A DNA stretch of 62,472 nucleotides, taken from positions 1-62,472 of IMG/VR virus record IMGVR_UViG_3300043466_001090, one strand, 5' to 3'. The notes beneath the pieces are model-generated. The model ran no database searches, was not told the DNA's origin, and was given only the letters and a program-made list of their open reading frames with translations. This document shows positions 1,168 through 18,600 of the stretch, piece after piece; position 1 is the first letter of the stretch, and each line of letters starts with the position of its first letter. This DNA is from a virus. Its lineage: Duplodnaviria; Caudoviricetes. The translations under genes were made by a program, and so were the position numbers.

Positions 1168-4100
1168 ATGGCTATAGAAAATACACTAGCGGAAGCTAAT
1201 GAGCAACTTCTAAATACATCAGAACAAGAACAAACTTTACTTAATCAAGATTCTTCTAAACTTGATTTTTCTACTTCTACAGAACCTACAGGTGATTTTT
1301 CTGGATTTAATTTAGAACAGATTCAAGAACCAAATGAACCTGCTGGTGATGGTTCATTTGTAACAACTGATCAAACTACAAAACCAGTAACTTTAGAAGA
1401 CTTAAGTAATCAATATAAGAAACAACGTGACATATCTAAGAACTGGTCTAGAAATGCAGTTAAGGTGGCAGCAACTAGAAGAGATCCTAGACTTGCTTTT
1501 GGTGACTATGAGTTTGATCAATATACAACTAACGTAGATAGATATAGAGGATACGGTAAAGAAACTTTTAATCGTCTTGGATTTAATCCATTAGATGATA
1601 ATGAAAAGTATTATAATGAAAATACCTCCAACTGGCAGGATTTTAAAAGAATGACTGGTCAGTTTGGTACATTATTTGGTTCAGCATTTTCTAGTAACTA
1701 TAGATCAATTGGTAATTTTTTATCAAATGATCAAGATGTTCTTTCTCCTGATCTAGATGGAGCAGCTACTTTTGAAAAAGCCATGAAAATTGGTATGAGT
1801 AGTAAAAAAGGAGTGAGAGCTTGGGGAACAAACTTTGCACTTAATCAAGCATATACAGCTGGTATAATGGCAAACATAGCCTTTGAAGAAGGTCTTATAT
1901 GGGCAGGGGGACTTGCCCTTTCTCCGTTTACAGGAGGGGCATCTGTAGCTGCTGCTACTGAACTAGGTGGAGCTAGTTTAACAAGAGGAGCACTAGCTTT
2001 GAAAAGAGCTAGAGAATTGAAACAAGCTGTTTCTTCTGCATATGGTGGTGCTCAAATAGGAGGCATGGTTAAGGGGGGTTTTCAGATGATCAAGTCTTTA
2101 AAAGATATAAATAATGCTAGGGCATTTTGGACAGGTGCTAGAACAGGAGCTAAAACATTTGCTAAGGGAACAGCTGGTTTTTTAAATCCTTTAAGACAAA
2201 CAACAGAGGCAATACAAGGAATGAGAGCAGGATTTTCTGTAGAGACAGGTTATAGAAATCTTTCAAACTTTGCTAAAATGTCTAGAGGGTTTGGAGGTTT
2301 TTATAGAGACACTAGAGAAAATATATTTGCCCTTAGTGAATCTCAATTAGAAGGTGGTAACACTTATAACGATGTATTAAATGAAAAAATAGATAAGTAT
2401 AAAAAGGAGAATGGTGGTAAATATCCAGAAGGAGCTGATCTTAATCAGATTTATACAGATGCTGAGGCAGCTAGTAGATTAACAACCAGCATAAACATAC
2501 CTCTTATATATTTATCAAACCGTTTTGTATTTGATGGGTTGTTTAATTTTAGAGGAGTTAAACCACTTATAGAGGCAGCAGAAGATGCTTCAACAAAAGG
2601 TTTGGCAAAAGGACTTAAGTTTGATTTAGCTTCTAAGTCTTTTACAGAAAATGCACAAGGCTTTTTTAAAGAAGCTTTTCAAAATGTAAAAAGACCTAAA
2701 GCTTTAGTTGGATCTTTTCTAAAATATACACAAGCTAATCTTGCAGAAGGTTTGCAAGAGATAGGTCAGGAAGTTACAGGAGGAGCTGTTAAGAATTACT
2801 ACATGGGTAATTATAAAGATGCTTCTCTTGGTGGTAAAGACTATTTAACAAGTGCTATACAATCATCTTTAAATGAAAATGTTTTTTCTGCACAAGGTTT
2901 AGATATATTTCTTTCTGGTTTTCTATCTGGTGGTGCCACTCAAGGTGGTATAAAACTTTTAAAGAATACTGTTACAGGTAGTAGAAATTTGTTTCTTGAA
3001 TCTAAAATAGCTCCTAATAAGTGGAGAGAACAATACAAAACTTATAAAGAACAAAAGAAACAAGCTAAAGATGTAGTTAGAAATGCAATGAATGAAATTG
3101 TTTCTGACCCTGAGAAATTCTTTAGTAGAAAAAATGAAAGTTTAGTAACTCAGAAGAAGGCTAATCAAGATATGATTGATGCCGATCTATCTAATGATAG
3201 TAAACTGTTTTATGATGCTAAGGATGAAAAAACTTTAGATCATATATTTACAGTGATTGAAGCAGGTGGTATACCTCAACTTAAAGCAGCTTTTACAGAT
3301 TTAAGAAGTTTATCGGATAACGAACTTAAAGAAGCATATAATATAGATAATGGTGCAAAGGCTAGAGAAAAGCTGGATGAGTATGTAACAAGGATGGACC
3401 AAATACAAAAGTCTTATAACTTTTTTAATAGTAAGTTTTCAAATCCTTTTAATCCATCTAAACTTAGAACAAAACCTTCTAAAGATTTAGTAATAGCAGA
3501 TAACTACTTATCTGGAAAAATAACATCAGAGGAGTTCTTGTCTAAAACTAAATCAATGCTTCCAGAAGGGGCTGATGCTGAAACATTTGCAACAGAAGAA
3601 GCTAATAAAATAATTGATAGCAAAAGTGGACATGAAGCTTATATAAAAGAGTTTATAGCTTATAAAGCTTTTGAAGATGCTAAGAAAGCAGCCATAGGTG
3701 CTACATTTGGATATGAAAGAGCTGTAGAAAGAATGGTGGGTTTGTTTGAAAATTTAATTTCAGAAGCTCCTCTTTCTAAAGCTAACGCTTTGGACTTTAC
3801 TGTTTTACAATCAGAGAAGTCTATGAGAGATGAGGTGAAAATGCTAAGTGAAGAAATTAACACCTTAGAAGAAGGAGGATCTAAAGAACAAAAAGCATTA
3901 GCCAAGTCTAAAAAAGAAAAACTTAATGCTTTACAAAACTATATAAAAGCTCTTTCTGAGTATAAGAAAAATAAGACCAATCCTAGTGTAGATGAGAACG
4001 GTCAGATAACTATTTCTTTTAACGAGGAGAATGCAAAAGGTTTAAAGGATGCGTATAATGCCTATCTAAAAGCTATTGCTAAAGTTAATGATGACTATGT

Positions 4101-6240
4101 TTTTGATTCTAAGATAGATGACTCTTTTGATAAGCTTTTAGATTATTATGAACTAGATGCTGATTCTAGAAGATTTAATAATGTTGTCAATACACTGTCT
4201 AATCCAGAAGGTCTTTTAAGATATGCAGATCTTGTAAACTCTACACTAACTGATTTATATCTTGAGAGGTTTGATATAATGGAAAAACGTGTAGATGACT
4301 ATATGAGCATATTTGAGTTTCAAATGCTCATAAATGTACTTGGGGAAATGAATGTTAAAATAAATCCTGCTGACGTAGAGGATTTGTTAAAGAGAGGAAT
4401 TATTCCTAATACATTCTTTGATCTTAAGAATAACAGGTTAATAACAGAATCTGATAGAAGATATCCTCAGATAGTACAGATGATTAACAACTTTGCCTCT
4501 TTACAAGAAGGAAAAGAAGCTGATGAAATAGAAGAGGAAGAATCTATAGAACAACCTACAGAAGAAGAAACAACAGCTCCTGCAGCACCATTTGAAATGG
4601 TTGAGAGAATTGAGGAAAAACCTGAAGAAAAAGTAGAACTTCCTGTTGATTTACAATTAAAGTTAAAGGCTGCATATAACGAATATATCAGATTTAATCC
4701 AGATGCTACGATGACGTTTAAAGAATATGTAGATACATCTTCTAAAGCTCAACGTATTAAAGAGGAATATGAAAAGCAACAAGTTAAACCTGCTGCTGAA
4801 ACAGTTGCAGAAGTAAAGCTTCCTGAAATAGAAGTGATAGAAGAACCAGTTGCAGAACCTGAAGTAACTCCTACAGAAGAAGCTCCTGTTTCTACAGATG
4901 CTAAAGCTGAGATACAACAAAAGATCATAGCACTTGTAAACGCAAGAAAGAGTGATTCTGTTGTTGCAAAAGCAATTAGAGACTTTAATCAAGATAAGAT
5001 TACCATTGAGGAGTTAGATGCTATTCAAAAGAAGTGGGATGATGAAAATGGATTAACTGATTTACAAAATCAACTTAGTGCTTTAGAAGGTAAACCAGAA
5101 ATACCTACAGCTCCAGTTGCAAGCGTAGAAACTGAAAAGAAAAAACTTGAAGCTGAGAGAGATAGGAAGATTGAAGAAGAAGCTCCTTTACAAAACTTTG
5201 GCGTAATTACATTAGGGTTTGTTAATGCAACTCCTAAAGAACGCAGATCTGTAAAACAATCTACAGAAGATGATGGTGCAAGTTATTTAAAAAATTTAGA
5301 AACATTAGCATTACGTACAGCACAAGCTAAAGAGGAAGATGTATTTCCAAAGGGAAAAGAAAATAACCCAGGAGCTTACATACGTAACTTTATGACAGGC
5401 AATACTTTTGATGATGTTAGAGTTGTATTTGCTGAAAATGAAAAAGCTATTTCATCAACTGATCCTGCCCTCGTAGGTAGACAATTTTATTTACAGTCTT
5501 ATAGATGGGCTCAGATGAAACTTGCAGGTCAAACTACAAGATCATTAGGTGAGTTCCTACTTGATACTCAGAAAGAAATTAGAGATGAATACCAAGCTAA
5601 GATAAATGCTTTAGAAGGTGGGACTAAACCTACGCAAGTAGAGCCTGTACAAGTTCAAAAAGAAGATGTTAGCAAAATTCTAGATGGCATAACATCTTTA
5701 AGAGATATGCCAAATATCTCTTTAAATGATAAGTCTGCAGTTAGTAATAAACTTTTAGACATGATTACTAACAAAGAAACTGATTCTATTACATTGACCA
5801 ACATGCTAAAAGAAAAGATGGAACAGTTGAGAAAAAATTTAACTGTTTCTGATTTTGTTAAAGGGGATTTTGTTACTTTTACTAATGGTAGAAAAGGGTG
5901 GATTACAAGTATTACCAAGACAGGAGATGTGCAGATGAAAATGGTAGGATCAGAAAAAGGACAGTACGAAATAATGGATGTAAAAGATATTTCTAAAAAT
6001 GTAAGCATGATTGAAAAAAGTAAAAAAGTATCTACACAACCAGTAGAAGAATTAACTATTGACCCTGCTGATCTTGAAGAAATTGAAGGTTCTAAAAAAG
6101 ATACCAGAGAAAGCTACTCTAGTGATATAAATAAGATTAAAGAATCTACAAACAGTGCTAAAGAAAGTAGTAAGGATGGTGTAAACAATAACTTAAATAA
6201 TCTATTAAATAACTTAGGCTGTAAAACAAAAGGACAATAA
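1168..6240 (+). CDS. Giant virion ejection/cargo protein (1690 aa) with a Gly/Ala-rich membrane-inserting region
   Basis: Hydrophobic G/A-rich stretches (GLIWAGGLALSPFTGGASVAAA; FLSGFLSGGATQGG), EGLQEIGQ motif, long helical and acidic Pro-rich linkers; immediately upstream of the vRNAP as in crAss-like phages. Confidence 0.7.
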   Translation: MAIENTLAEANEQLLNTSEQEQTLLNQDSSKLDFSTSTEPTGDFSGFNLEQIQEPNEPAGDGSFVTTDQTTKPVTLEDLSNQYKKQRDISKNWSRNAVKVAATRRDPRLAFGDYEFDQYTTNVDRYRGYGKETFNRLGFNPLDDNEKYYNENTSNWQDFKRMTGQFGTLFGSAFSSNYRSIGNFLSNDQDVLSPDLDGAATFEKAMKIGMSSKKGVRAWGTNFALNQAYTAGIMANIAFEEGLIWAGGLALSPFTGGASVAAATELGGASLTRGALALKRARELKQAVSSAYGGAQIGGMVKGGFQMIKSLKDINNARAFWTGARTGAKTFAKGTAGFLNPLRQTTEAIQGMRAGFSVETGYRNLSNFAKMSRGFGGFYRDTRENIFALSESQLEGGNTYNDVLNEKIDKYKKENGGKYPEGADLNQIYTDAEAASRLTTSINIPLIYLSNRFVFDGLFNFRGVKPLIEAAEDASTKGLAKGLKFDLASKSFTENAQGFFKEAFQNVKRPKALVGSFLKYTQANLAEGLQEIGQEVTGGAVKNYYMGNYKDASLGGKDYLTSAIQSSLNENVFSAQGLDIFLSGFLSGGATQGGIKLLKNTVTGSRNLFLESKIAPNKWREQYKTYKEQKKQAKDVVRNAMNEIVSDPEKFFSRKNESLVTQKKANQDMIDADLSNDSKLFYDAKDEKTLDHIFTVIEAGGIPQLKAAFTDLRSLSDNELKEAYNIDNGAKAREKLDEYVTRMDQIQKSYNFFNSKFSNPFNPSKLRTKPSKDLVIADNYLSGKITSEEFLSKTKSMLPEGADAETFATEEANKIIDSKSGHEAYIKEFIAYKAFEDAKKAAIGATFGYERAVERMVGLFENLISEAPLSKANALDFTVLQSEKSMRDEVKMLSEEINTLEEGGSKEQKALAKSKKEKLNALQNYIKALSEYKKNKTNPSVDENGQITISFNEENAKGLKDAYNAYLKAIAKVNDDYVFDSKIDDSFDKLLDYYELDADSRRFNNVVNTLSNPEGLLRYADLVNSTLTDLYLERFDIMEKRVDDYMSIFEFQMLINVLGEMNVKINPADVEDLLKRGIIPNTFFDLKNNRLITESDRRYPQIVQMINNFASLQEGKEADEIEEEESIEQPTEEETTAPAAPFEMVERIEEKPEEKVELPVDLQLKLKAAYNEYIRFNPDATMTFKEYVDTSSKAQRIKEEYEKQQVKPAAETVAEVKLPEIEVIEEPVAEPEVTPTEEAPVSTDAKAEIQQKIIALVNARKSDSVVAKAIRDFNQDKITIEELDAIQKKWDDENGLTDLQNQLSALEGKPEIPTAPVASVETEKKKLEAERDRKIEEEAPLQNFGVITLGFVNATPKERRSVKQSTEDDGASYLKNLETLALRTAQAKEEDVFPKGKENNPGAYIRNFMTGNTFDDVRVVFAENEKAISSTDPALVGRQFYLQSYRWAQMKLAGQTTRSLGEFLLDTQKEIRDEYQAKINALEGGTKPTQVEPVQVQKEDVSKILDGITSLRDMPNISLNDKSAVSNKLLDMITNKETDSITLTNMLKEKMEQLRKNLTVSDFVKGDFVTFTNGRKGWITSITKTGDVQMKMVGSEKGQYEIMDVKDISKNVSMIEKSKKVSTQPVEELTIDPADLEEIEGSKKDTRESYSSDINKIKESTNSAKESSKDGVNNNLNNLLNNLGCKTKGQ

Positions 6241-6242
6241 AC

Positions 6243-9200
6243 ATGGCTTGTAAACTATCAGATGATCAATTAGATGCGTTATATAAAGCAACTGTAGGAG
6301 AAATAGTAGCTAGTAAAGTGAACGGACAAACATTTAGTCCTGATGCTTTTATGAAAAAAATACACAGTGCTATATTTGAAGCTACAAATGATATGGCAAA
6401 TGCTTTAGACTATGTACAGCATATTCCTTGGGCTATTAACCTGGCTCAAGGTATTGATATGGAAATAGCTGATTATCTAATAGATAGCGGAGTGAGTATG
6501 GATGCTGTAAATAAACTTCGTAGAGATTTTGATAATGTAGATAACATAGTTAAATACTTAGGTCTTAATAAGAACGATGAGTTAGAAACAGCTAAAGAAA
6601 TAATAGAAGAGTCTTTTCCAGAAACACAAGTGATTGAAACTGATGAGTATACAGAAGTAGAAAAAAAGGATAAAGATCTTAAAGAACAAGAAATTAAAAA
6701 CAATTTTGTTCAAACTAAAGATGGTGCTTTTGTAGCAAAACCAGATAGTGCACTTGCTACAATAAGTCAAGAAGCTAAAACCTATGGAGGCTTTGTACAA
6801 AAAGATAATGTAATAGATGATGATCCTCAGAAGAAAGCTTACTATAACCTGGTAAGATTAATTAATGATGAGTTGGTAGGTTTACCAAATGCTAATAATT
6901 TAAAGATAGGAAACATAACAGGCATCTTCTTTAAAGCAATACCTACAAAGAATATTGACTCTGAAGATTTTTATCAAGAGCATAGAGAGTTTTTTTCTAA
7001 ACCAGATAATCCTGGTATTAAAGAAGATGATGTTTCTTTGGTGTTTTCTGACAAGGAAGGAAACATATTATACTTTAATGAAAATGCAGAAATAGTTTCT
7101 AAAGAAGAAGGTAAACCACTCTATACATTTATGCGTAGGGTGTACACTAAATCTGGGAACAAGGTTGTATATAATGTTCAGGATGTAGAAAGTTTAAGTT
7201 TGAAACCTGGGGCAGAAGCTGTTGAAGTTTTAAGAGAGGCTCGTAACAGTGAGATAGAAACTTTAGAAAAGCTTAGAGACTATGTTTCAAAGAATCCTAA
7301 TCAAAATGTTTTACTTTCTGTTACAGCAGGTAAAAATGGATATGTCACTGAAGACTTCTCTAATAAAGTGAGAATATCTTCTATAGACTTAGGTGGTTCT
7401 TTCTCACCATACTATTCTTCTATAAATCAAAGTGGTCAGGTAAAAGGAGGCGTTTACTTTAATGTTTCTGATTATCCTCTTCCCGTACTTATACATAGAC
7501 CAAAGTTTTCTGAGATTCCAAATCTTGTTGAAAGTTTGACTAACGTTTTATTTGATTCTTCTTTAAACAATGCTCAAAAGATAAAACTTGTAAAACAGTT
7601 TACTCAGAGTAAAGACACTGCTGTTTTTGAAGAAGAGGGTGTTGTAAAGGTGAGACAAGGTGAAAGTATTTTAGATACAAGTGTAAAAACAAACAAGGAT
7701 GCATTTGTACAAAACTTAAACAACCAAACAGTAAACATTAACAAAGATCTTCTTGGAGGATACTTTACGATGCCTGTAATGGTAGATAATAAACTGGAGC
7801 TTCAAGAAAGTAAAAACTATAATAACTTTTTAGCAGATAACTTCTATACATTCTTGCAAAAGAATGCTGAGAATAAAATAGTTAAACTAAATGCTTATAA
7901 TACTTTTCAGCTCACTACAGAAAGTGCTGAAAAGATATTTGATGTAAAAGTTAAAGAGCCATCATCTAAACAAGAGTCTACACTGGAGCAGGATACACCG
8001 TCTGATCAGAGCGTGGAAGATTTTAAAAAAGCTATCGGTAAAATAGATACTTCCCTAAAGAAAGTTAAACAATTAAGCAGTGAGGCTACAGAAAAACAAA
8101 TAGCTGATGCTGAGAAGTGGTACAACAACTCTCCTCTTTCTAAACATGTTCCATTTAGTGTTATGCTTAATGCTGTAAACTCAGATGCTATAGCTGAGTT
8201 TACCACTTCAGGTATATTCTTATATAAAGGATCAAACTTTACAGATCTTTACCATGAAGGTTGGCACGTATTTAGCCAAATGTTTTTAACAAAACCACAG
8301 AAGAAAAAACTGTATGGTGAAGTTAGAAAACTATCTGGCACGTTTACAGATGTAAACGGAAAAACTTTAAGATTTGCTACAGCCACTGATAAACAAATTG
8401 AAGAGTTTTTAGCAGAAGACTTTAGAAAGTATGTTCTATCTAAGGGAACTAAGATATTTGAAAACAGACCTGTAGCTAATAACATATTCCAAAAGATATG
8501 GAACTTCTTAAAAGCATTGTATAAAGGTCAATCTATAAAAAGAATTCTTTCAGATACTTCTACTACCGGAATGGTGAAAGATCTTTATGACAAACTCTAT
8601 ATTGGAAACATTAATGAGTATAAGCCTTCTCTTTCTAATGTACAGTTTACTGTTTTAAATAAAGGTATTCAGGACTTAGACGCTAAGTCTGATGAAAACA
8701 AAGGTATGAACTACCAAGACTCAATGGTTATTAGTCAAACTATTGATTCTTTAATGGCTTCTAATCTATCTGAACAAGGTCTTAGTGTAAATACAGTGTT
8801 TACCAACCCTGAACTTCTAGGTCCTTTGTATGCTAAGATTAAGTATGACTTATCAAAACTGAAGGACAACTTTGATCCAGAAGACTTTAGAGTTAAAATG
8901 ATTGATAAGGCTTTAGAAAACTGGGGAGATTTTTCTAAGGTTATACAAGGAGAAGAACAGAATGGTGTAATTGCATTTCATAGAAAGAGATCTGACTTTT
9001 TAGGATTTGATGAAAAGTATTCTAATCTTGCATTAGATGAACAAGATGAGGAAGATGGAAACGTTAGTGAAACAGATATTACAGATGAGGGTAGTAAGTT
9101 AGAAAAGAGAGATGCTGAACTTCGTGAACAGTTTGGTTCTAAGGTTGGAGAAAAGAAAGGTAATGAAAATTCAATTCTTGAAATAGCTAGTAATCAAACG

Positions 9201-12200
9201 GTCTATTTGGTAAAAAGTTTGCCTGCCATGGACAAACAAGGAAACATAGACTATAATATACTGGGTGTACCTAAGCTGGTAGAGTTTAATAGAATGTGGG
9301 GTATTTTAATTAATACTGTAGCTGGTTCTATTAATAAGACAGACATGTATAATAAGATTGTTGCAAACTCTGCTGTTTTTCCAGAACTAAAAATGTTGGC
9401 AGAAAGATTGAAAGATCCTGTTAGCAAGTCTTCTGTTAAAACAGATGCTCCATATATTCAAATGTGGGGAGCTTTCTTTAGAGACTTTAGTGTTTACAAA
9501 GTACCTATTAAAGAACTTCAAGTAGTAAAACAAATAGTTAAGGAAAAAATTAATGGAAAAGAAGTTATTGTAAGTGAATCTTATAGTATAAGATTTGTAG
9601 AATCTGAACCACTGTTTCAACAAGTGAAGACTAACTTTACAAATCTTTTTCAGACATCAACATCTAGACAGTACATTACAAGAGATGCAAAAAATCTTGA
9701 AGGAGTAAATGTATTAAATCTTGAAAAACTATTTGAAGACTTTTCATCAGCTAAAGATCTTCAAAGAGGAGAAACTGCTCTTAAGTTTTTGAAAGCTATA
9801 GGTTTTTATATGACAGACAATAAGTTTGTTAAGGATAACTTATTCAAAAGCAATAACTTAAAAAAAGTTGGTTTCATTTATGATAGATTAAAGAGAGCAT
9901 ATAAAGCTAACATTGTTATACAAAACCCAATTGCTTTTTTAGAAAGTAATGAGATTAGTTCAGATGCTAGCTTTAACGGTAGAAATAATGGAAATGATGT
10001 AAAGGCTATCCTTGATATAGAAGGTAAATATTCTACCAACTACAGCAACAACTCTATAATGAATGTTAGTGGTGATAGAGAATATGATCTGTCACTTAAC
10101 AATAGTCTCACTCAGTTTTTAAAAGAAATAAACAACCCGCAAAAAGCTAAGTATCAAGATGTTGTTTCTCAACCACATATGGCTCACTTAGATTTTAGAA
10201 GAAATCCAAATGCTAAATATTCTTCTTGGATTAGTAGCATGTTTGATATTCCTAAACTCTATGGTGACTTCTCTACAATGAATCAGGGATTTAGAAAAAC
10301 AGAAAATGGAGTTGCCTCTGTTTTAAATGTTATAAATCTAAATGGTATTAAGAGCGTTATAGATGAAGTTGGTAAAACTCAATATAGTGATGGTGGTATA
10401 AAGACGGCTAACTTAGATGGAAATAGTAAGTTCTTACTGGACTTGCATACAATGCTTGAGTCTGGAGTTATGGAACTTGCTCGTAGAGCATCTAAGTCTT
10501 CTTCTTATGGTGTTTCTGTTTCTAATCTAAGAACTCCTTATAATGAGAATGATAGAACATCTTATATAAGTGTTGGTTATTTTGCAGATGATAATATATC
10601 TACAGACTATGCTATTAAGATGCTTAAGGAGAAACTGGCAGCTGAGATGGAAAGAATAGCAATAGTAAAAGATGATATAAAAAATAAGGGCGAGCTTTCT
10701 AAAATTCCAGGGTTTGCAGAAAGAGCTGTTAAGTTTATGGCTTTTGATGACATGTTGGCTAGTGACAAAACTTTGAAAGAAGATTTGATTAAAGTTGCAA
10801 ACCAAGAAGATTCTTTTTCTATTGTAAATTCTGCAGAGTTTTCTGGTAGAATATCAAAAGCTTTGTCTAAATATCTACAGGCTCTTTACAACGAGAATAC
10901 AGAGATATATAAAGAAATGCCTTTTCTTTCTACAGCTGTCAGAAATAAAATAAGAAAAACAGTAAAGAATGATGGGTATTCTGTTTCAGATTCTAAAATT
11001 GAAGAAGTTGCTATTAAAGCATTTACTGTAAACTCTTTAATTCATAACTTAGAAGTTATTGCTGTATTGGATGGTGATCTTGCTAACTTTAATCATGAGA
11101 AGGAAGAATACAATAAACGTAATGCATATATAACATCTACAGGTAGAATTTTCTCATTTGATGCTTCCGATATTAAAGTGTTAAATAGTGAAGACTATTT
11201 CAACAGTACGTATGCTAAATCTATCACTGCTCCTAAAAGAGACTTTAATGGAGTGTTAAACACTGCTGTATTTAAAGACAATAATTTTAAGTCTCTTTAT
11301 TATAAAGAATATGTAAATGCTTTAGTAGATACAGGAAAATATACAGAAGAAGAAGCTGAAAAGATATTAGAGCCCTACATTAAAATGAATGAAGGAGATG
11401 GTCAAGGTTGGATTACCTTTGATGCATACAGAACTCTTTCCATACTTGAGGGGAATAAGTGGACTCCTAAACAAGGAGAGCTTTATACAAAAATAATTAA
11501 AGGAGAAGAGGTTAGTCCAGAAGATATTTATGAATTCTTTCCTCCTCTTAAGTTTCAATATGCTGGTCCACTTAAAACAGATAAGCTTGACGTAAGAGCG
11601 TTTCATAAGTTTTCTCTAGCTCCATTGATTCCTAGTATTATAAAAGGAACCAACATGGAAATTTTTCATGACAATCTTGTAAAGCAAGGTATTGATTATG
11701 CTTTATTTGAATCTGGTTCTAAAATGTCCACTCTAACAAATGATGGATCTGCTGATTCATTTTATGATGGTGATGACTACGATTCTAGAAAGATTAGTCC
11801 TTGGACAGATAATAAACAAATGTATAAGAAGAATCCTGTTTTTATACAATACCTTAAGAATCAGGTTGATATTGCTCCAACGTGGAAAGGAAAAACAATA
11901 TTTTCTACGCAGCTTAGAAAACTAATCATTAATGATATTTTCTTAAAAGGTTTACCAATCAATGATGACTTTAAGAAACTTGTTGCTGATTTTGAAAAGA
12001 ATCTAAATGACCTACAGTCTTTTAAGAAACAAGAGCTGCTTGAAGAAATTGGTTGGGTGATTGATGATAAAGGAAACCCTAAAGGAAATACTGCAGACTT
12101 AGTAAAGTTTGTAAAGAAAGAATTATCAAGACAAGGTTTACCTGATCATGTTGTTGAGTTTATTGACTTAGATGATTCAGGTAAGAAGTTAAGATATGAT

Positions 12201-15200
12201 CTGAGCTATAGTCTTGCTGCAGAACAAATAGAAAAGCTTCTAAATGCTATAGTTGTTAAGAGACTCATTAGACAGAAGTTAAATGGAGAGCAGCTTATTC
12301 AAGTGAGTGGTGCTGGGTTTGAAACAAGTAATAGAGCTATATTTACTAAAGCTACGGAAGAGCAACTTAAGAAATATCGTGGTACCAATGACCTTCCTAC
12401 ATATCGTCCAGGTAAAGGAAAGAACGGAGCTACCACTGCTATGAAAGTTAAGGTGGCTATGAACGGAGATTATTATAAGTTGTTAGAATTAAATAGTGTA
12501 AAAGAGTTTTCAGAAAAAAATAATATAACTCGTTTAGAAGCTCTTAATAGACTTTTAAAGACCGAAAGCTGGTTAGACAAAGATGACAACCGTAAGCTTG
12601 TTACAATGGTGGCTGTACGTATTCCAGTACAAGGACTCAACTCTATGGAGTTTATGGAAGTGTATGAGTTTCTTCCTGAAGAAGCTGGTAACATTTTAAT
12701 TCCTCCAACTGAGATTGTAGCTAAATCAGGATCTGACTTTGATATTGATAAGCTCACTGTGTTTCAACCAAACTATGATGGTAAAAAAGATTATGCCAAG
12801 CTCTCTAAAGGAGATAATGTAAAAGGTGTTGAAAACAATGTAATTGATAATATACGTAAGATATTAGAGCATCCTGATAACTTTGTTTCTCTTATACGTC
12901 CTAACGATACAGATCTTGTTAAAGGAGTGGCTGATAACTTAGCTAAAGAAAATATTCAAGGTTTTAATCCACTTGCTAATAAAACAATAGAAGGTTATAA
13001 TAAAGGTAAGAAAGGAAATGTCATAAGCCCCACTCGTATTTTAGAATCAAGATATAATATATACAAACATGATTCTAATAATATAGGAAAGAAGACACTT
13101 GGTATTGGTGCTGTAGATAATGCCTACTCATCTATATTTAAACGTATAGGTGCTAGACTTATGCCTGAATATACATTTAGACCTTTTGATAAGAAAAAGA
13201 AACCTCACACTAGAAAAGTAAACATTGCATTTGATCACAATAAAATAGTTATTGACGGTGTAGAATATGTTTCTCTTTCTGATATAGAGACAACTACAGG
13301 TAGAAAAATAAGTGATATCATAGCTCAGCTTATGAATGGATGGGTGGATATTGAGAAAGATGCTTGGATATTTAACATCAATGGAAACAATGTAGCTGGT
13401 CCAGTTCTTCTATTCTTGTTAGAGACAGGAGTAGATTTTAAAACAGCAGCTTATTTTGTTTCTCAGCCTATAATTGTTGACTATATTAAACAAAGATTTC
13501 AATCTGAAAGTCCTTTCTACGAGCCTTCTGGTAAAGGTAAGAGACAACAAAGAGGTCTTAATAAGTTTGCCATAAGAATGAATATGGTTAAAGAGTATAT
13601 TGGACCACTTCCTGTTATACAGAAAGGAGATAGAGCTGGGGAAGAATTTTTGTCTGGTGAAATACTTTATAATAACTTTATAAAGCCTACTACTTCTAAT
13701 GTAGTGTTTTCACAAAAAGAATTGTTGGATAATATACAATCAAAAGACTTAAAATCACTTACATCTAAAAGAGCTCTGATGCATTTCTTTGAGCTTGAGG
13801 ATATGATGAACCAGCTTACAAATGTAAAGCTTACGGTTAACGTTGATACAAACCCATCTAAAACATTCTTAGATGCTCAGACTAGATTGATTAATATAGA
13901 AGGATTGAATAAAACTGATATCTTCCCTCCTGATACTATTCAAAAGATAAAAACAGATTCTCCTATTTCTTCTTTCTTTATACAGAACTTCCAGTTAAAT
14001 CTTTTCAAACCTTTGATGAAACTTAGAGCTGATGAAAAGATTAATAACTTTTTGATTAAGCAGATAGAGTCTGAGAGTTTTAAATTAGGGTTTGATGACA
14101 CGAGTAAGTTTGCAGTGGCATTTAAGAATGATATTCCTCTCTACTTGTTACACAACTATTTAAAAGGAGTTAACCTAGATAGTATAAAAGAATACAGTAG
14201 TATTGGTGTTGATTCTAATATTCCTGTAGAAGAAGCTCAGCTTAAATACGGAGCCTTTGTAAAGAATAATGTAATGTACATAGACAAGGCTCAGATAAAG
14301 GAAGACTTTAAAACTAAAGCTTACGCAAGTGCTGCTTATGAAAAAAGAGGTCTTCATAAAGTATCAGAAGAGCACTTTACTTTCTTTAAGAACAATGATT
14401 TGGATTTCCAAGAGTATAGTCACTTTGTTTTGGAGAGAGAATATCTCAGAAGCGTAACTCCTACAGAAGGTAAAACAAGACCAGAGTTTGAGAAAGAAAT
14501 TGCAGAGAAAGCTTTAGAGAATACCTATAACTTCTATAGTATTTTAAAGTCTCCTTCTAGTATAGCAAATGTCTTTAGTCAGATTAAAGAATCAGCAACA
14601 TCTGATGTATCAAAAAATTATATGATATTTGATCAGATTGTACCTAGTAAGCTTAAATCTGATAAGGGTATAAATACTCTTAAAATGAAAAGTGCAAAGG
14701 TAGATAAAGACATGGCTAACACTCTTCATGAAAATCTTGTTAGACTATCTGATCCTAATACAATTAAGTTAGCAGATCCTGCTAGAAATGCTAATATGTC
14801 AGCATTTTTTCGTAAATTTATTGTAGCGGAGTATATGAGATCAGGTATTACAAAATCAAGTGATAGTCTTTCTCCTATTCTTCCGACAGATGTTTTAATG
14901 AAACTTTTAAAAGAACCAACTCAAGACTTTAAAGTGACTGATGAGTTTTTAGAAAACTATTACTCAGCGTTCTTAAGAAACTGGAATAAAGCATCAAAAG
15001 ATAGAAGAAATAAAATTCGTAACTATTTGAAAGTGAGTGAGTTAAGTATACCAAGTTTGGAAGCTGCTGACAACTCACTGGTTATCACAGATGAGAAAGG
15101 TCTTAACAATTATGTTAGACCTATTAGTCCTGAAGGAGTTAAATCTATTATACAGAACAATCCAGGATATGTTTTTATATATCCTACTAATGAAGCTGGA

Positions 15201-15623
15201 ATAGATGAGAAGCTTTCCTCAGAGTTCCAAAAAGGATCTTCTATTGGAATTCCTGTTAAACCTAAGGGAGGACGTATGCAAAAGTGGTCAGATAGTTCTT
15301 ATGATAGTAATGTTGTGGCTATAAACAATTCTTTAAATAAAATAGAAAAGGCTCTTGAAGATGATCAACCTATTGCTTTTCCACAAGAAGGATTTACTGA
15401 TGTAGTGGATAAGAATAAGTCTAGTCAATTAGAGTCTTTTGATGTTTTACAACAAGCTGCACCACGTACCTTTGAGTATCTGGCTACAGAGCTTTATAAA
15501 AGATTTGGATATATCCACCCTGGAGCTGAAAAGCTTTTAGGATTTAGAACCCTGTATCAAACTTCACAAGAAATATCTGATACTGAGGTTGATGAGTTTA
15601 TTAAAAAATGCTTTGGAGAATAA
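6243..15623 (+). CDS. Virion-packaged single-polypeptide two-barrel RNA polymerase (crAss-like), with N-terminal zincin-like domain
   Basis: Catalytic KSGSDFDIDKL (DxDxD at 12735-12749) preceded by RIPVQGLNSM; NEGDGQGWIT motif; HEGWH zincin motif at ~8253-8267 with downstream EEFLAEDF; 3126 aa. Confidence 0.9.
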   Translation: MACKLSDDQLDALYKATVGEIVASKVNGQTFSPDAFMKKIHSAIFEATNDMANALDYVQHIPWAINLAQGIDMEIADYLIDSGVSMDAVNKLRRDFDNVDNIVKYLGLNKNDELETAKEIIEESFPETQVIETDEYTEVEKKDKDLKEQEIKNNFVQTKDGAFVAKPDSALATISQEAKTYGGFVQKDNVIDDDPQKKAYYNLVRLINDELVGLPNANNLKIGNITGIFFKAIPTKNIDSEDFYQEHREFFSKPDNPGIKEDDVSLVFSDKEGNILYFNENAEIVSKEEGKPLYTFMRRVYTKSGNKVVYNVQDVESLSLKPGAEAVEVLREARNSEIETLEKLRDYVSKNPNQNVLLSVTAGKNGYVTEDFSNKVRISSIDLGGSFSPYYSSINQSGQVKGGVYFNVSDYPLPVLIHRPKFSEIPNLVESLTNVLFDSSLNNAQKIKLVKQFTQSKDTAVFEEEGVVKVRQGESILDTSVKTNKDAFVQNLNNQTVNINKDLLGGYFTMPVMVDNKLELQESKNYNNFLADNFYTFLQKNAENKIVKLNAYNTFQLTTESAEKIFDVKVKEPSSKQESTLEQDTPSDQSVEDFKKAIGKIDTSLKKVKQLSSEATEKQIADAEKWYNNSPLSKHVPFSVMLNAVNSDAIAEFTTSGIFLYKGSNFTDLYHEGWHVFSQMFLTKPQKKKLYGEVRKLSGTFTDVNGKTLRFATATDKQIEEFLAEDFRKYVLSKGTKIFENRPVANNIFQKIWNFLKALYKGQSIKRILSDTSTTGMVKDLYDKLYIGNINEYKPSLSNVQFTVLNKGIQDLDAKSDENKGMNYQDSMVISQTIDSLMASNLSEQGLSVNTVFTNPELLGPLYAKIKYDLSKLKDNFDPEDFRVKMIDKALENWGDFSKVIQGEEQNGVIAFHRKRSDFLGFDEKYSNLALDEQDEEDGNVSETDITDEGSKLEKRDAELREQFGSKVGEKKGNENSILEIASNQTVYLVKSLPAMDKQGNIDYNILGVPKLVEFNRMWGILINTVAGSINKTDMYNKIVANSAVFPELKMLAERLKDPVSKSSVKTDAPYIQMWGAFFRDFSVYKVPIKELQVVKQIVKEKINGKEVIVSESYSIRFVESEPLFQQVKTNFTNLFQTSTSRQYITRDAKNLEGVNVLNLEKLFEDFSSAKDLQRGETALKFLKAIGFYMTDNKFVKDNLFKSNNLKKVGFIYDRLKRAYKANIVIQNPIAFLESNEISSDASFNGRNNGNDVKAILDIEGKYSTNYSNNSIMNVSGDREYDLSLNNSLTQFLKEINNPQKAKYQDVVSQPHMAHLDFRRNPNAKYSSWISSMFDIPKLYGDFSTMNQGFRKTENGVASVLNVINLNGIKSVIDEVGKTQYSDGGIKTANLDGNSKFLLDLHTMLESGVMELARRASKSSSYGVSVSNLRTPYNENDRTSYISVGYFADDNISTDYAIKMLKEKLAAEMERIAIVKDDIKNKGELSKIPGFAERAVKFMAFDDMLASDKTLKEDLIKVANQEDSFSIVNSAEFSGRISKALSKYLQALYNENTEIYKEMPFLSTAVRNKIRKTVKNDGYSVSDSKIEEVAIKAFTVNSLIHNLEVIAVLDGDLANFNHEKEEYNKRNAYITSTGRIFSFDASDIKVLNSEDYFNSTYAKSITAPKRDFNGVLNTAVFKDNNFKSLYYKEYVNALVDTGKYTEEEAEKILEPYIKMNEGDGQGWITFDAYRTLSILEGNKWTPKQGELYTKIIKGEEVSPEDIYEFFPPLKFQYAGPLKTDKLDVRAFHKFSLAPLIPSIIKGTNMEIFHDNLVKQGIDYALFESGSKMSTLTNDGSADSFYDGDDYDSRKISPWTDNKQMYKKNPVFIQYLKNQVDIAPTWKGKTIFSTQLRKLIINDIFLKGLPINDDFKKLVADFEKNLNDLQSFKKQELLEEIGWVIDDKGNPKGNTADLVKFVKKELSRQGLPDHVVEFIDLDDSGKKLRYDLSYSLAAEQIEKLLNAIVVKRLIRQKLNGEQLIQVSGAGFETSNRAIFTKATEEQLKKYRGTNDLPTYRPGKGKNGATTAMKVKVAMNGDYYKLLELNSVKEFSEKNNITRLEALNRLLKTESWLDKDDNRKLVTMVAVRIPVQGLNSMEFMEVYEFLPEEAGNILIPPTEIVAKSGSDFDIDKLTVFQPNYDGKKDYAKLSKGDNVKGVENNVIDNIRKILEHPDNFVSLIRPNDTDLVKGVADNLAKENIQGFNPLANKTIEGYNKGKKGNVISPTRILESRYNIYKHDSNNIGKKTLGIGAVDNAYSSIFKRIGARLMPEYTFRPFDKKKKPHTRKVNIAFDHNKIVIDGVEYVSLSDIETTTGRKISDIIAQLMNGWVDIEKDAWIFNINGNNVAGPVLLFLLETGVDFKTAAYFVSQPIIVDYIKQRFQSESPFYEPSGKGKRQQRGLNKFAIRMNMVKEYIGPLPVIQKGDRAGEEFLSGEILYNNFIKPTTSNVVFSQKELLDNIQSKDLKSLTSKRALMHFFELEDMMNQLTNVKLTVNVDTNPSKTFLDAQTRLINIEGLNKTDIFPPDTIQKIKTDSPISSFFIQNFQLNLFKPLMKLRADEKINNFLIKQIESESFKLGFDDTSKFAVAFKNDIPLYLLHNYLKGVNLDSIKEYSSIGVDSNIPVEEAQLKYGAFVKNNVMYIDKAQIKEDFKTKAYASAAYEKRGLHKVSEEHFTFFKNNDLDFQEYSHFVLEREYLRSVTPTEGKTRPEFEKEIAEKALENTYNFYSILKSPSSIANVFSQIKESATSDVSKNYMIFDQIVPSKLKSDKGINTLKMKSAKVDKDMANTLHENLVRLSDPNTIKLADPARNANMSAFFRKFIVAEYMRSGITKSSDSLSPILPTDVLMKLLKEPTQDFKVTDEFLENYYSAFLRNWNKASKDRRNKIRNYLKVSELSIPSLEAADNSLVITDEKGLNNYVRPISPEGVKSIIQNNPGYVFIYPTNEAGIDEKLSSEFQKGSSIGIPVKPKGGRMQKWSDSSYDSNVVAINNSLNKIEKALEDDQPIAFPQEGFTDVVDKNKSSQLESFDVLQQAAPRTFEYLATELYKRFGYIHPGAEKLLGFRTLYQTSQEISDTEVDEFIKKCFGE

Positions 15624-15637
15624 AATAATACACACTT

Positions 15638-18600
15638 ATGCTAGTTTGTCCTAACATCAATACAAAAGAGTGGAAAGAGTTAGAAAAAGCTCTTGGTCAA
15701 AAAGAAGCTTTTAGAGAATATATTAGACTTAATACAGGAGGTATTCCCTCTTTGGTAGATGTTCTTCCTTTAAATCAGGTTCCTTTTTCTAAACTAGAAG
15801 ATGACGAGAGTGTTAAAACACTTAAAGAAAATACAGCTAATGATTTAATAGATTTTCTTAATAACAAGTTTCCTGGTGTTAAGGGTGCTGTCATCAATGA
15901 TAAGAAACAAAAGTGGAAAGGAAAACTAGTAGATGGTAAAACTCCAACAATCAATCTTGCATATGCAGAAGCTTCTGATGGTTTTCATGAGTTTTCTCAT
16001 CCTTTCTTAATGGCTTTAAGAAAGTCAAACTCTGAAACATTTAACTCTTTGTATAATGATTTAAAAGAATCTGAAGAGTGGAATGAGATAAGTGTTAGAG
16101 CTACAGAGCGTGTAAATAAACTCTACCCTGAACTGAGAGGTAATGTTAATCTAGATTTATACAAAGAAGAAGTGATGGCTACAGCCATAGGTTATGCTTC
16201 TGAATTAAAGCTTCTTACAAGTAAGAAAAAGATTAGCTCAAGATTAGGTAGAATAATTGATAATATTTTTGAGTGGCTTAATAATTTCTTCTCTGAAATT
16301 TCACAGAAAGGTTTTGCAGATCGTATTAAGACAAATGACCTCACTCCTAATACTACTTTTGGTGAAATCATTGATATGTTCACCGATACCAGAAGTCAGA
16401 TTATTTTAGATTCTGATTGGAATAAAGCTGCTGATAATCTTAGAATAGCTGATGCTATGACAGGAGCTCTTACAACCAATCAAGAACTCATGTCTGAACA
16501 ACTGATGAATGATGTATCAACTGAAATACTTACAAATAAAGCTTTTAGTTTAGATGAGTATATCAATCAGTGGTTAGCTAAAACATTTAAACTTCCTAAA
16601 AAAGAATTTGTACCAAGAAAAGTAAAACCTTCTGAGCTTGCTTACAATATTGCTAGCAGAATGATAGAAAGTGTTCAGCAAAAAGGTTTCCAACTGAGAG
16701 GTATTGATTTTAAACAAGTAAAAACTTTACCAGAGAGTTTTGCTGTTCAGAAAGCAACTATAGAAAGACTTGCAAATATCATCACCCCTATTGAACTTAA
16801 TTATAAGTTTTCAAACTATCTTACAAATAAGAAAGCTACATCTATAGCATTAAATCAACCTCTTGTTACAATAAAAGATGTTGAGACAAAAGATAAAGAA
16901 GGAAACGTAGTTATACAACCCACTCCTAATATTCAAATTTCTGTTGCTGAGGCAGAAGCTGTTATTGATTTTCAAAACTTTATTAAGGATAAATTTCCTG
17001 GACGTAAGTCTATACCAGCAGACGAGCTTAATGATGAGTATTTAAAGTGGGTGACAGAGAACTATGGAATAAATTGGACAGATGCAACTGGTGTAGCAGG
17101 CTATGGTATGAATAGGATTGCTAATGCTCCATATCAAAATTATACTAGAGTTTTATTTATAGATGATTATTTTGATACCAGTCCAAGACATAATTTTACA
17201 GTGAACCAAACAGGTGATCAAGGAAATGGATTAGGTTGGTATGTAAGAGTTGAGATTGGAGGAGATAGATTTGATCATGAGTTTCAATCAGATATTCTTC
17301 CTGAAATTGAAAAAGACTTTAAAGAGGGTAAGTATTCTGAAAGTTTACCAGCTGGAAAACTAAGACCTCAGAATAGAAGAACGCAAGTTGAAAATCTAGC
17401 TGTATCTAAGATAACTAGCATGATGCAAACATCTGGTGATTTTCTAATTGCCAGAGATAATTTTTTATATGATCAAATAACTACTGTTGATGAAGAAATA
17501 GAAAATTCTTCTCCTACTCTTATTGAGATAGAACCACAGGAGTTACAGATTTATCCTGAACTTCCTTTTAGTAAGTTGGATAGTTATGATCCAGCTAGAT
17601 TAGAAAACTCTAAAAAGTTTTTGCTTGCTGAGGTGGATGTTCAAATACAACTATTAAAAGATTCATCTAGAAGATTGGATACTATTTTAGGACAAAAAAT
17701 GTTTTCTAAACTTTACAATCTATTTTTAAGTAGAAAGAATGATGAGCAGAAAGAATTGTTTGATTGGTTTAAAACATTTAAAACTACTGATTTTAGTACC
17801 TCTGATCAAGACTCACTGCCTTTTAGTAAAATAGATAATGCTCCTGTAGAAATATTTTTAGGAACGTATAATGAAAAAAGTTATTACTTAACTCAAGAAA
17901 GTATTGATAAATTTCCTTCTGCATTTAAGAAAATATACAAAATACATTTGGAATGGGCTCAGTCAAATGCTCCATTAAAACCTAAGTTGCCAAATGATGA
18001 AATGTTTTGGATAAATACAATGGCTAATGCGTTTATGAACAGACTTGTTGATAAACAAGGAAATATTAAAAAGAATTATGGAAAAAATAAGGCTGATATT
18101 CAAAGGACAAGAGATCTTATAAAAGATGAGCTTAAAAAATCTTTTAACTCCTATAACTTTTCTAAAAAACAACTAAAGGCTTTAGAGTGGAGACAAATAG
18201 TATATCAAGATGTAAATAATATAGTACACATTACTGAATACTATAAAGGACAGTTTAATAGACTTTATAGATTTTATAATAATATTTATGAATCAGCTCT
18301 TCCTATAGCTCAAGAAAAAATAACAGCTAAAGAAAGAGACCCTAACTTTGCTAGATATAAAAAATACAATGACCTTTACTATAAGTGGTTTGATATAATT
18401 GTTCCACAATCTATAAATAGTGCTAAAGCTGAGGGACGTCCATACTACTATCTTCCTACAGCTATGGCTATGAATGCTATTGAAGGTAATCCTGCTGCTG
18501 AAAAAGTCTACTGGACTCCTTCTGATAGTCTTGAAGAAATGAAAAGAGGTTTAAATCCTATATTGGATATTGAACGTTACATATCACAAAATACAGAAGA

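Follow-up and report, generated by a model that had tools for sequence, protein, structure and literature searches.

Paired cysteines at the gene junctions of a crassvirus RNA polymerase cargo and a possible disulfide-linked chain for ejection

Why do three giant phage proteins that are almost devoid of cysteine carry nearly all of the cysteines they possess at the points where one gene stops and the next begins? The question is raised by IMG/VR virus record IMGVR_UViG_3300043466_001090, a fragment with an estimated completeness of approximately 50% whose whole length of 62,472 nucleotides (nt) is referred to here as the window. Three consecutive open reading frames (ORFs) of this stretch code for proteins designated A, B and C, treated below as members of a chain, and the middle one is, as judged from its catalytic motif and its homologues, a crAss-like virion RNA polymerase. 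A first-pass annotation of the window had pointed out that four of the five cysteines in the three proteins are located at the two gene junctions and that the outer ends of the set are bare, and had proposed that these cysteines link the proteins head to tail. ORF translations confirmed the arrangement, with every coordinate exact and a total of five cysteines in 7,661 amino acids (aa). Comparison with related phages demonstrated that the placement of the cysteines is conserved, that they are strictly paired across junctions and that they track the gene boundaries.

Junction cysteines in the window and in related loci

The proteins and cysteines of the window on which the comparison is based, together with the ORF that precedes them, were the following.

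1168–6240, + strand: protein A, 1690 aa, 188.8 kDa, first chain member, with its sole cysteine near the C-terminus
6220–6222 (TGT), + strand: Cys1685 of A, sixth residue from the end (..LGCKTKGQ, then stop)
6243–15623, + strand: protein B, 3126 aa, 354.5 kDa, middle chain member and crAss-like virion RNA polymerase, with a cysteine at both ends
6249–6251 (TGT), + strand: Cys3 of B (MACKL..), invariant in alignment A1 of 31 homologues
15609–15611 (TGC), + strand: Cys3123 of B, fourth residue from the end (..KKCFGE, then stop), invariant in alignment A3 (28 sequences)
15638–24175, + strand: protein C, 2845 aa, 327.8 kDa, last chain member, with an N-terminal cysteine, no C-terminal cysteine and an HExxH motif
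15647–15649 (TGT), + strand: Cys4 of C (MLVCPN..), within a conserved N-terminal motif of 37 residues (M1 C4 P5 N6 W12 ...)
23237–23239, + strand: Cys2534 of C, the only internal cysteine of the module, outside the junction rule
3–1154, + strand: upstream ORF, 383 aa as read, without cysteine and not a chain member; the window may begin inside this gene

Four of the five cysteines are no more than six residues from the two gene junctions, and neither the N-terminus of A nor the C-terminus of C possesses one. Outside A, B and C, 36 listed ORFs reach a length of 150 aa; with two antisense-overlapping ORFs and one 5'-open duplicate set aside, the remaining 33 gave a background cysteine frequency of 1.20% (111 in 9,221 aa). 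At this rate approximately 92 cysteines would be expected in A, B and C in place of the five observed. The probability of at least four of five randomly placed cysteines falling within the 28 junction-terminal positions was 8.9e-10 in a post hoc test. The single internal cysteine, Cys2534 of C, appears dispensable from alignment A2, where ten of the 17 rows have cysteine at this position and the remaining seven have F or N.

Related loci were obtained by scanning IMG/VR with the full-length B alignment, which identified 79 loci that were taken with up to 10 kb on each side. Clustering of their B proteins gave 41 groups at a threshold of 50% identity and 24 when this was lowered to 40%. A junction was defined as two adjacent co-oriented (+ strand) ORFs of at least 400 aa, and cysteines were scored in the last 10 residues of the upstream ORF and the first 8 residues of the downstream ORF. 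Among the 171 distinct junctions found in this manner (197 pairs in all), 110 had a cysteine on both sides and 61 on neither side, and the classes with a cysteine upstream only or downstream only were both empty. The co-variation of both junction cysteines suggested in the first-pass annotation was therefore observed without a discordant case, and loss of conservation or independent variation of the terminal cysteines, either of which had been named as evidence against a linked chain, was not what the loci displayed. The gap between the paired ORFs was no more than 60 nt at 105 of the 110 paired junctions, and paired junctions also occurred across gaps of 524–1,837 nt, some of them with inserted genes.

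The 201 distinct chain proteins from these loci (507,285 aa) contained 275 cysteines, 256 of them terminal and 19 internal, so that internal cysteine was suppressed to 0.0037% in the relatives and to one in 7,661 aa in the window. The N-terminal cysteine was found at residue 3, 4, 5 or 6 in 59, 31, 26 and 13 cases respectively (129 of 129) and never at residues 1–2, while the C-terminal cysteine was one of the final three residues in 104 of 127 cases and the very last in 39, leaving 2–5 residues before the former and 0–9 after the latter. Both cysteine codons were used for the terminal positions (TGT 225, TGC 31). The outer ends of the chains were uniformly bare, as no cysteine was present in the first 8 residues of any first member with a complete N-terminus (55/55) or in the last 10 residues of any last member with a complete C-terminus (68/68), and the one or two ORFs upstream of A in the related loci were poor in cysteine and had none at their termini.

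Homologue sets assembled for each protein gave a similar result. The 68 B homologues, with 2,060–5,271 aa, one to four cysteines each and 22–100% identity, all had a cysteine in the last 5 residues (68/68) and 46 had one in the first 6. Exactly one cysteine, located in the last 8 residues, was found in 32 of 33 A homologues, the exception being a sequence from a 4.2-kb contig, and none of the 33 had an N-terminal cysteine. For C, 23 of 25 homologues had cysteine at residue 3 or 4 and none of the 25 at the C-terminus, the two exceptions coming from short contigs or having a start called downstream. An exhaustive search with the B core produced 2,138 clusters at 50% identity, and in the best 150 representatives of these 2,138 both terminal cysteines were present in 128, only the C-terminal one in 17, only the N-terminal one in three and neither in two. 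These 150 representatives (518,841 aa) had 277 terminal and 59 internal cysteines, with no internal cysteine in 115 of them. The terminal pattern was kept down to 22–25% identity and the same termini were present in independent public gene calls.

Small ORFs with cysteine were also observed between chain genes at two loci (L052 21952–22545; L063 12361–13050). They begin with the motif MK..YKGSCIY[VI]I.., reminiscent of GIY-YIG homing endonucleases, and may be selfish elements whose insertion has not disturbed the cysteine pair on either side.

Gene boundaries that shift between lineages

The sequence comparisons indicate that cysteine pairs shift with gene boundaries, being gained at splits and inserted links and lost at fusions. 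Twenty-two B homologues without an N-terminal cysteine had lengths of 3,812–5,271 aa, and in 20 of these the B-like part began 1,273–3,136 residues into the protein. Seven A-B fusions were verified (L068, P0049, P0052, P0054, P0056, P0066 and P0067), their N-terminal part being A-like by BLASTP or by the A profile, and all seven have lost both junction cysteines, which bears out the loss on gene fusion anticipated in the first-pass annotation. Four of the seven have a single cysteine in more than 4,000 aa, at the C-terminus. Fusions of the A-B, B-X and X-C types in related loci all keep the same domain order.

Gains were seen where the polypeptide has been newly divided. At locus L012, C is split into proteins of 583 and 1852 aa with the new boundary ..NSCKL (stop) and MSKC.., and both parts are colinear with the intact C of six out of six relatives, none of which has a cysteine at that point (0/6). 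L043 encodes a 655-aa module as a separate protein with a cysteine at each end; in L020 this module forms part of C (69% identity), and in L008 (48%) and L029 it forms part of B. Small links of 252, 396 and 171 aa (L021, L052 and L079) have exactly two cysteines each, one per end.

Two false boundaries were devoid of cysteine pairs. The apparent split of B in L053 (14038–14056) is a frameshift without cysteine, as an intact relative aligns across it from frame 1 to frame 3; this frameshift could be either a sequencing error or a programmed shift. In cr108_1 (L085 17790–18108, NC_055878.1) the polymerase gene is broken within the catalytic sequence, between ..GSD and FDIDK, by a group I intron (RF00028, 80 bits, E 1e-20). 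No cysteine pair is present at this break, and the exons are annotated as separate hypothetical proteins. The rule was also correct in the one prediction made from it (1/1): the 6,381-aa ORF of L029 ends in cysteine at the edge of the locus, and a protein starting MSCPIRG.., 1,298 aa long and with Cys3 as its sole cysteine, begins 2 nt past the stop codon.

These observations may be of use in annotation, as a true protein boundary in the module has a cysteine pair and a frameshift or intron does not. The rule also corrects start-codon calls. Several coding sequences (CDSs) of CrAssphage ZA (MK238400.1; L082 16917–17000 and other CDS starts) are annotated from non-ATG codons upstream of a clear ATG, and with the ATG start the polymerase fusion of this phage begins MSCGN.., placing its cysteine at residue 3.

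Identity of the cargo proteins and the named phages

The assignment of B was made by tblastn, which matched phi14:2 gp66, annotated as 'Catalytic RNA polymerase subunit', and 124 other crAss-like phage records, and by a profile of B homologues, which matched gp66 (7e-37), crAss001 gp50 (2e-27), IAS virus gp056 and the fusion protein of cr118_1. A profile of A homologues matched crAss001 gp47 (4e-13). Motifs supporting the assignments of B and C in the window were as follows.

12735–12749, + strand: DFDID catalytic motif of B, residues 2165–2169 in ..SGSDFDIDK.., invariant in 31 homologues
19181–19195, + strand: HEYSH (HExxH) motif of C, residues 1182–1186, with H1182, E1183 and H1186 invariant

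A DFDxD-type motif is also present in gp66, gp50, IAS gp056, CrAssphage ZA, cr271_1 and cr118_1. The Drobysheva preprint describes the gp65 orthologues as bearing HExxH and as zincin-like proteases, and by analogy with these C is a putative zincin-like protease. The C profile matched no named-phage protein with HMMER, and hhalign of the C alignment against the zincin-annotated protein of CrAssphage ZA and against phi14:2 gp65 gave no meaningful alignment; its probable membership of the module is proposed from position and the HExxH motif. On the strength of record annotation and an HExxH motif, the protein that precedes the polymerase in Intestiviridae may be a homologue of C, in which case the same protein would have its cysteine at whichever end faces the polymerase. 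No PHROGs family matched any of the three proteins, Pfam yielded nothing beyond a sub-threshold match to DUF7831 in B, with no Hint/intein or other catalytic fold at the termini, and a PDB sequence search found nothing relevant. The A/B junction had no match in phage records by blastn, and no relatives were recovered when loci were scanned with the last 500 aa of A, whose patterns are of low complexity.

A second invariant HExxH was observed in B at residues 671–675 (window 8253–8267) in the context ..LYHEGWH.., with H671, E672 and H675 invariant in the 31 homologues, and cr118_1 has a corresponding HEAFH within the part of its fusion that is aligned by the B profile. This is possibly a second metalloprotease-like motif of the module besides that of C.

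At least one junction cysteine pair was present in all eight named phage records examined (8/8), with the following layouts.

phi14:2: the sole cysteine of gp67 is its last residue; gp66 has Cys3 and Cys2179 of 2180 residues; gp65 has Cys3 only
crAss001: gp47, on the other strand, has cysteine third from the end; gp50 has Cys5 and a cysteine 9 from the end; gp49 has Cys5
IAS virus: layout as in crAss001
CrAssphage ZA: ..ISFSCM (stop), then MSCGN..
cr271_1: ..KISCM (stop), then MSCKIQ..
cr118_1 (Suoliviridae): fusion ends ..MKHCKGE (stop), then MICPN..
cr108_1: ..KNLCK (stop), then MANVCPN..
Flavobacterium phage Fpv3: gp32, 4,287 aa, has one cysteine, second from the end; gp33 begins MACTVE..

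Both crAss001 gp47 and IAS gp058 have kept the C-terminal cysteine even though the gene lies on the strand opposite its partner. The feature is conserved in every crassvirus family sampled and in related Flavobacterium phages, and the comparisons indicate that it is under strong selection.

With regard to the particle, the phi14:2 record annotates its module proteins as found by tandem mass spectrometry (MS/MS), and mass spectrometry of crAss001 virions in reduced and non-reduced samples has been reported (Bayfield 2023, PMC10172136). By analogy with these homologues, the proteins of the window would be packaged in the virion and ejected from it.

Downstream of the module, at a distance of a few kb, genes annotated as thioredoxin were noted in CrAssphage ZA (L082 31364–31657 and 32374–32643) and cr108_1 (L085 29067–29336). 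The record of the window, approximately 50% complete, yielded no thioredoxin, and a search of this record for Erv1/Alr was equally negative and is uninformative, as it also matched none of 14 control genomes.

Nature of the link and known systems

A cysteine pair sits wherever the polypeptide is interrupted and nowhere else, which is most simply explained by a bond between the two thiols in place of the missing peptide bond. The explanation that we regard as fairly probable is that the cargo proteins, each translated on its own, are joined by inter-chain disulfides into a single thread with hardly any branching, which allows them to be ejected in order. The cargo proteins would be translated separately in the reducing cytoplasm and would dock end to end before packaging, and the paired thiols would be oxidized in the released virion. 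A, B and C would thus constitute one thread of 7,661 residues and approximately 871 kDa, with overhangs of 2–5 and 0–9 residues at each joint, that passes the narrow tail channel like a single polypeptide, with a fixed exit order and a 1:1:1 ratio. The links would then be cut by reduction on reaching the cytoplasm, and the lack of other cysteines would prevent wrong pairings throughout. Presence in virions and partial unfolding during passage, as well as the occurrence of disulfides in a crassvirus particle, are taken from literature on homologues and would apply to the window by analogy.

The residues surrounding the cysteines were also surveyed. Lysine made up 29–32% of residues at positions -1, -2 and +1 of the C-terminal cysteine in comparison to a background of 9.3%, and 72 of 109 C-terminal contexts had K or R within two residues of this cysteine. 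The thiolate form is favoured when a positive charge is close by. The lysine-rich flanks, the extreme terminal position and the absence of other cysteines fit a disulfide.

A model of the last 250 residues of B by AlphaFold2 (mean predicted local distance difference test, pLDDT, 80.6) placed Cys3123 at the end of the last helix (237–248 of the 250 residues), where pLDDT was approximately 80. No significant neighbour of this model was found in the PDB (best E 6.6e-3, TM 0.28–0.42), and a likeness of the domain to PTP-fold phosphatases was rejected as too weak to trust on the same values. A complex prediction for the C-terminal 227 residues of B (alignment A1) with the first 80 residues of the window's own C scored 0.23 against a mark of 0.32, a value that speaks neither for nor against a contact. 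A motif Q-x-[IV]-[ST]-D-x-E-[IV] was observed approximately 20 residues before the C-terminal cysteine of B (window 15540–15600; alignment A3, 27 loci), where it is kept among lineages that are 14–43% identical in that region, and possibly helps the next protein to dock.

Conservation of this kind, which extends beyond the cysteines both in the B motif and in the 37-residue N-terminal motif of C, would also be expected if the termini docked non-covalently and the cysteines attached the proteins to a third component of the virion, took part in a transient step of assembly or sensed redox state. The orphan terminal cysteines of CrAssphage ZA and Fpv3 described below are in keeping with this explanation as well. 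We consider it unlikely, as such a role leaves unexplained the bare outer ends (55/55 and 68/68), the joint loss of both cysteines on fusion and their joint gain on splitting, and the complete lack of one-sided junctions (0/171).

A metal ion (Zn, Cu(I) or Fe) shared by the paired cysteines as a bridge, with no disulfide, would also fit the pairing and the tracking of boundaries, as would any two-thiol bridge, and it could form in the reducing cytoplasm, which removes the difficulty of timing. Each terminus provides just one cysteine and no second conserved ligand, however, with His within six residues of the cysteine in none of 109 C-terminal and seven of 104 N-terminal contexts, and the flanking lysines would repel a cation. 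A two-thiolate site is unusual for zinc. The three to four conserved Cys/His ligands of a structural zinc site were not found at these termini, making a classical zinc site unlikely, and we judge a bridging metal in general to be quite improbable.

Cysteine is the residue used in N-to-S acyl shift chemistry, and as the pairs act as stand-ins for a peptide bond they could in principle drive another covalent joining, such as a thioester-based ligation to a true polyprotein. We regard this as very improbable: the termini have no Hint/intein or other catalytic fold according to Pfam, the N-terminal cysteine is never at residues 1–2 and hence offers no free alpha-amine beside the thiol, and the 39 cysteines at the very last residue would need catalysis that nothing here suggests. 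The annotation of the phi14:2 proteins as separate virion proteins by MS/MS also suggests, with no claim to proof, that a true polyprotein is not formed. Finally, chance, gene-calling artefacts or a nucleotide-level signal for translational coupling, for which the tightness of most junctions might speak, have practically no probability given the post hoc value for the window alone, the conservation to 22–25% identity with agreement of independent public gene calls, the survival of pairs under strand inversion and across gaps of 524–1,837 nt, and the use of both TGT and TGC at variable spacing from start and stop.

Two further candidates were ruled out. A bacterial lipobox is excluded by the N-terminal cysteine at residues 3–6 in 129 of 129 cases, as lipoprotein signal peptides have approximately 15–25 residues before the lipobox cysteine. 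Split inteins and trans-splicing are excluded by the lack of a Hint domain in A, B and C in the Pfam search and of any intervening sequence.

Several points weigh against a disulfide-linked chain. All of the arguments in its favour are comparative, and the bond is a prediction from sequence. As the cytoplasm is reducing, formation of the link would have to await packaging or release; anoxic guts are the habitat of many of the hosts, and the disulfides reported for crAss001 come from purified virions and may reflect oxidation by air. The table of 110 paired, 0 and 0 one-sided and 61 bare junctions overstates the number of independent events because the loci share ancestry, and the independent support is, as these sequences indicate, the set of boundary shifts. 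Twenty-two of the best 150 representatives of the 2,138 clusters lack one or both terminal cysteines, most of them being of the size of fragments or fusions. IAS gp055 ends ..LILCNGD and is followed by an annotated gp056 without an N-terminal cysteine, in a region with ambiguous bases where the two ORFs have 11 nt in common. In CrAssphage ZA a protein of approximately 775 aa (L082 6023–8410) ends ..KQSCR next to a cysteine-free downstream neighbour, and Fpv3 gp30 (L083 8552–10348, 598 aa, MKKKC..) has Cys5 with no upstream C-terminal cysteine; these orphans of ZA and Fpv3, which are outside the polymerase chain, may pair with a structural protein. Internal cysteines are also more numerous in gut crassviruses than in the IMG/VR lineages, as in IAS gp056 (10 in 2,159 aa), cr271_1 (15 in 4,620 aa) and CrAssphage ZA (8 in 4,091 aa), and in these the junction pairs are still kept.

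The chain hypothesis survives every comparative test that we could devise. The interpretation given in the first-pass annotation has been strengthened in part, as conservation, co-variation and loss on fusion were borne out by comparison, along with four points that it had not anticipated: the gain of pairs at splits, the two cysteines of each small link, the lack of pairs at false boundaries and the persistence of the pair under strand inversion. The chemistry and purpose that it assigned to the cysteines stand as the inference they were. With slightly better than even confidence we propose that the RNA polymerase cargo of crassviruses and their relatives is a 'post-translational polyprotein' of two to five giant proteins that are joined by disulfides into a near-megadalton chain, ejected in fixed order and undone by the host cytoplasm. 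If this were true, viruses could assemble and transfer a chain of almost a megadalton whose parts are translated separately, and evolution could cut such a chain into genes almost anywhere, provided that a cysteine pair replaces the lost peptide bond. Infectivity may then hinge on redox conditions in the particle as well as in the host. Crassviruses are described as the most abundant viruses of the human gut in one paper (PMC10172136), and a 2026 paper on N4 counts the crassvirus ejection proteins among those still to be resolved (PMC13434306).

Parts of this picture are already known, namely cysteine suppression in N4-like phages, the fused crassvirus module and the tail disulfides of crAss001. 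In a literature search that took in few subscription journals, the terminal cysteines of crassvirus cargo were nowhere described, and two papers in which crAss-like phages and cysteine are both mentioned refer to cysteine only in connection with culture media. The Drobysheva preprint describes fused forms of the crassvirus RNA polymerase module that resemble the A-B, B-X and X-C fusions found here in having the same domain order. It supposes that the fusion is cleaved into parts, and the words 'cysteine' and 'Cys' are absent from the text that was available. Our comparison suggests the reverse, that separate proteins are rejoined, because the cysteine pairs appear exactly where the peptide chain is interrupted.

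Disulfides between subunits have been reported from a crassvirus particle, that of crAss001, for the tail (hubs), the ring proteins R1 and R2 and the gp57 dimer (Bayfield 2023, PMC10172136). In contrast to the links proposed here, these rivet a fixed scaffold of tail and portal vertex, and the same paper in its accessible part makes no mention of cysteines in gp47, gp49 or gp50. It does state that the cargo must partly unfold to pass constrictions of less than 50 Å, and it names packing and interactions among the cargo proteins as the probable determinants of their order of ejection (PMC10172136).

Split inteins resemble the present system in that separately translated pieces are rejoined with a cysteine at the junction, but here there is no Hint domain and no removable sequence, and the cysteines are 3–6 residues from the N-terminus and 1–10 from the C-terminus. 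The two chains of AB-type translocated toxins stay connected by a disulfide outside the cell and on their way through the membrane, and this bond is cut in the reducing cytosol. The two toxin chains are nicked from one precursor, and the bond closes a loop, whereas the crassvirus proteins, products of separate translation, would be linked serially by their ends inside the capsid; the comparison is one of analogy only, with no homology.

A close likeness is to the N4-like phages (Schitoviridae: the polymerase gp50/gp71 with gp51/gp72 and gp52/gp73), where a giant virion-packaged RNA polymerase is also expelled into the host and cysteine is also suppressed. Homologues of the N4-like ejection protein gp71 have 0.00075% cysteine, whereas the proteome-wide figure is 0.865%, a suppression attributed by the authors to the need to cross the periplasm (PMC11445570). 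The polymerases of N4 and crassviruses are unrelated in fold according to a second paper (PMC13434306). The two systems also differ in that N4-type proteins lack any cysteine and the polymerase is one polypeptide, whereas in crassviruses the interior is bare, a cysteine pair marks the boundaries and the module is spread over 2–5 genes; the absence of any conserved cysteine that characterizes N4-like ejection proteins was accordingly not seen here (68/68, 32/33 and 23/25 with a terminal cysteine for B, A and C). N4-like phages deliver their polymerase as one cysteine-free polypeptide, and crassviruses would use a chain of cysteine-free proteins clipped together.

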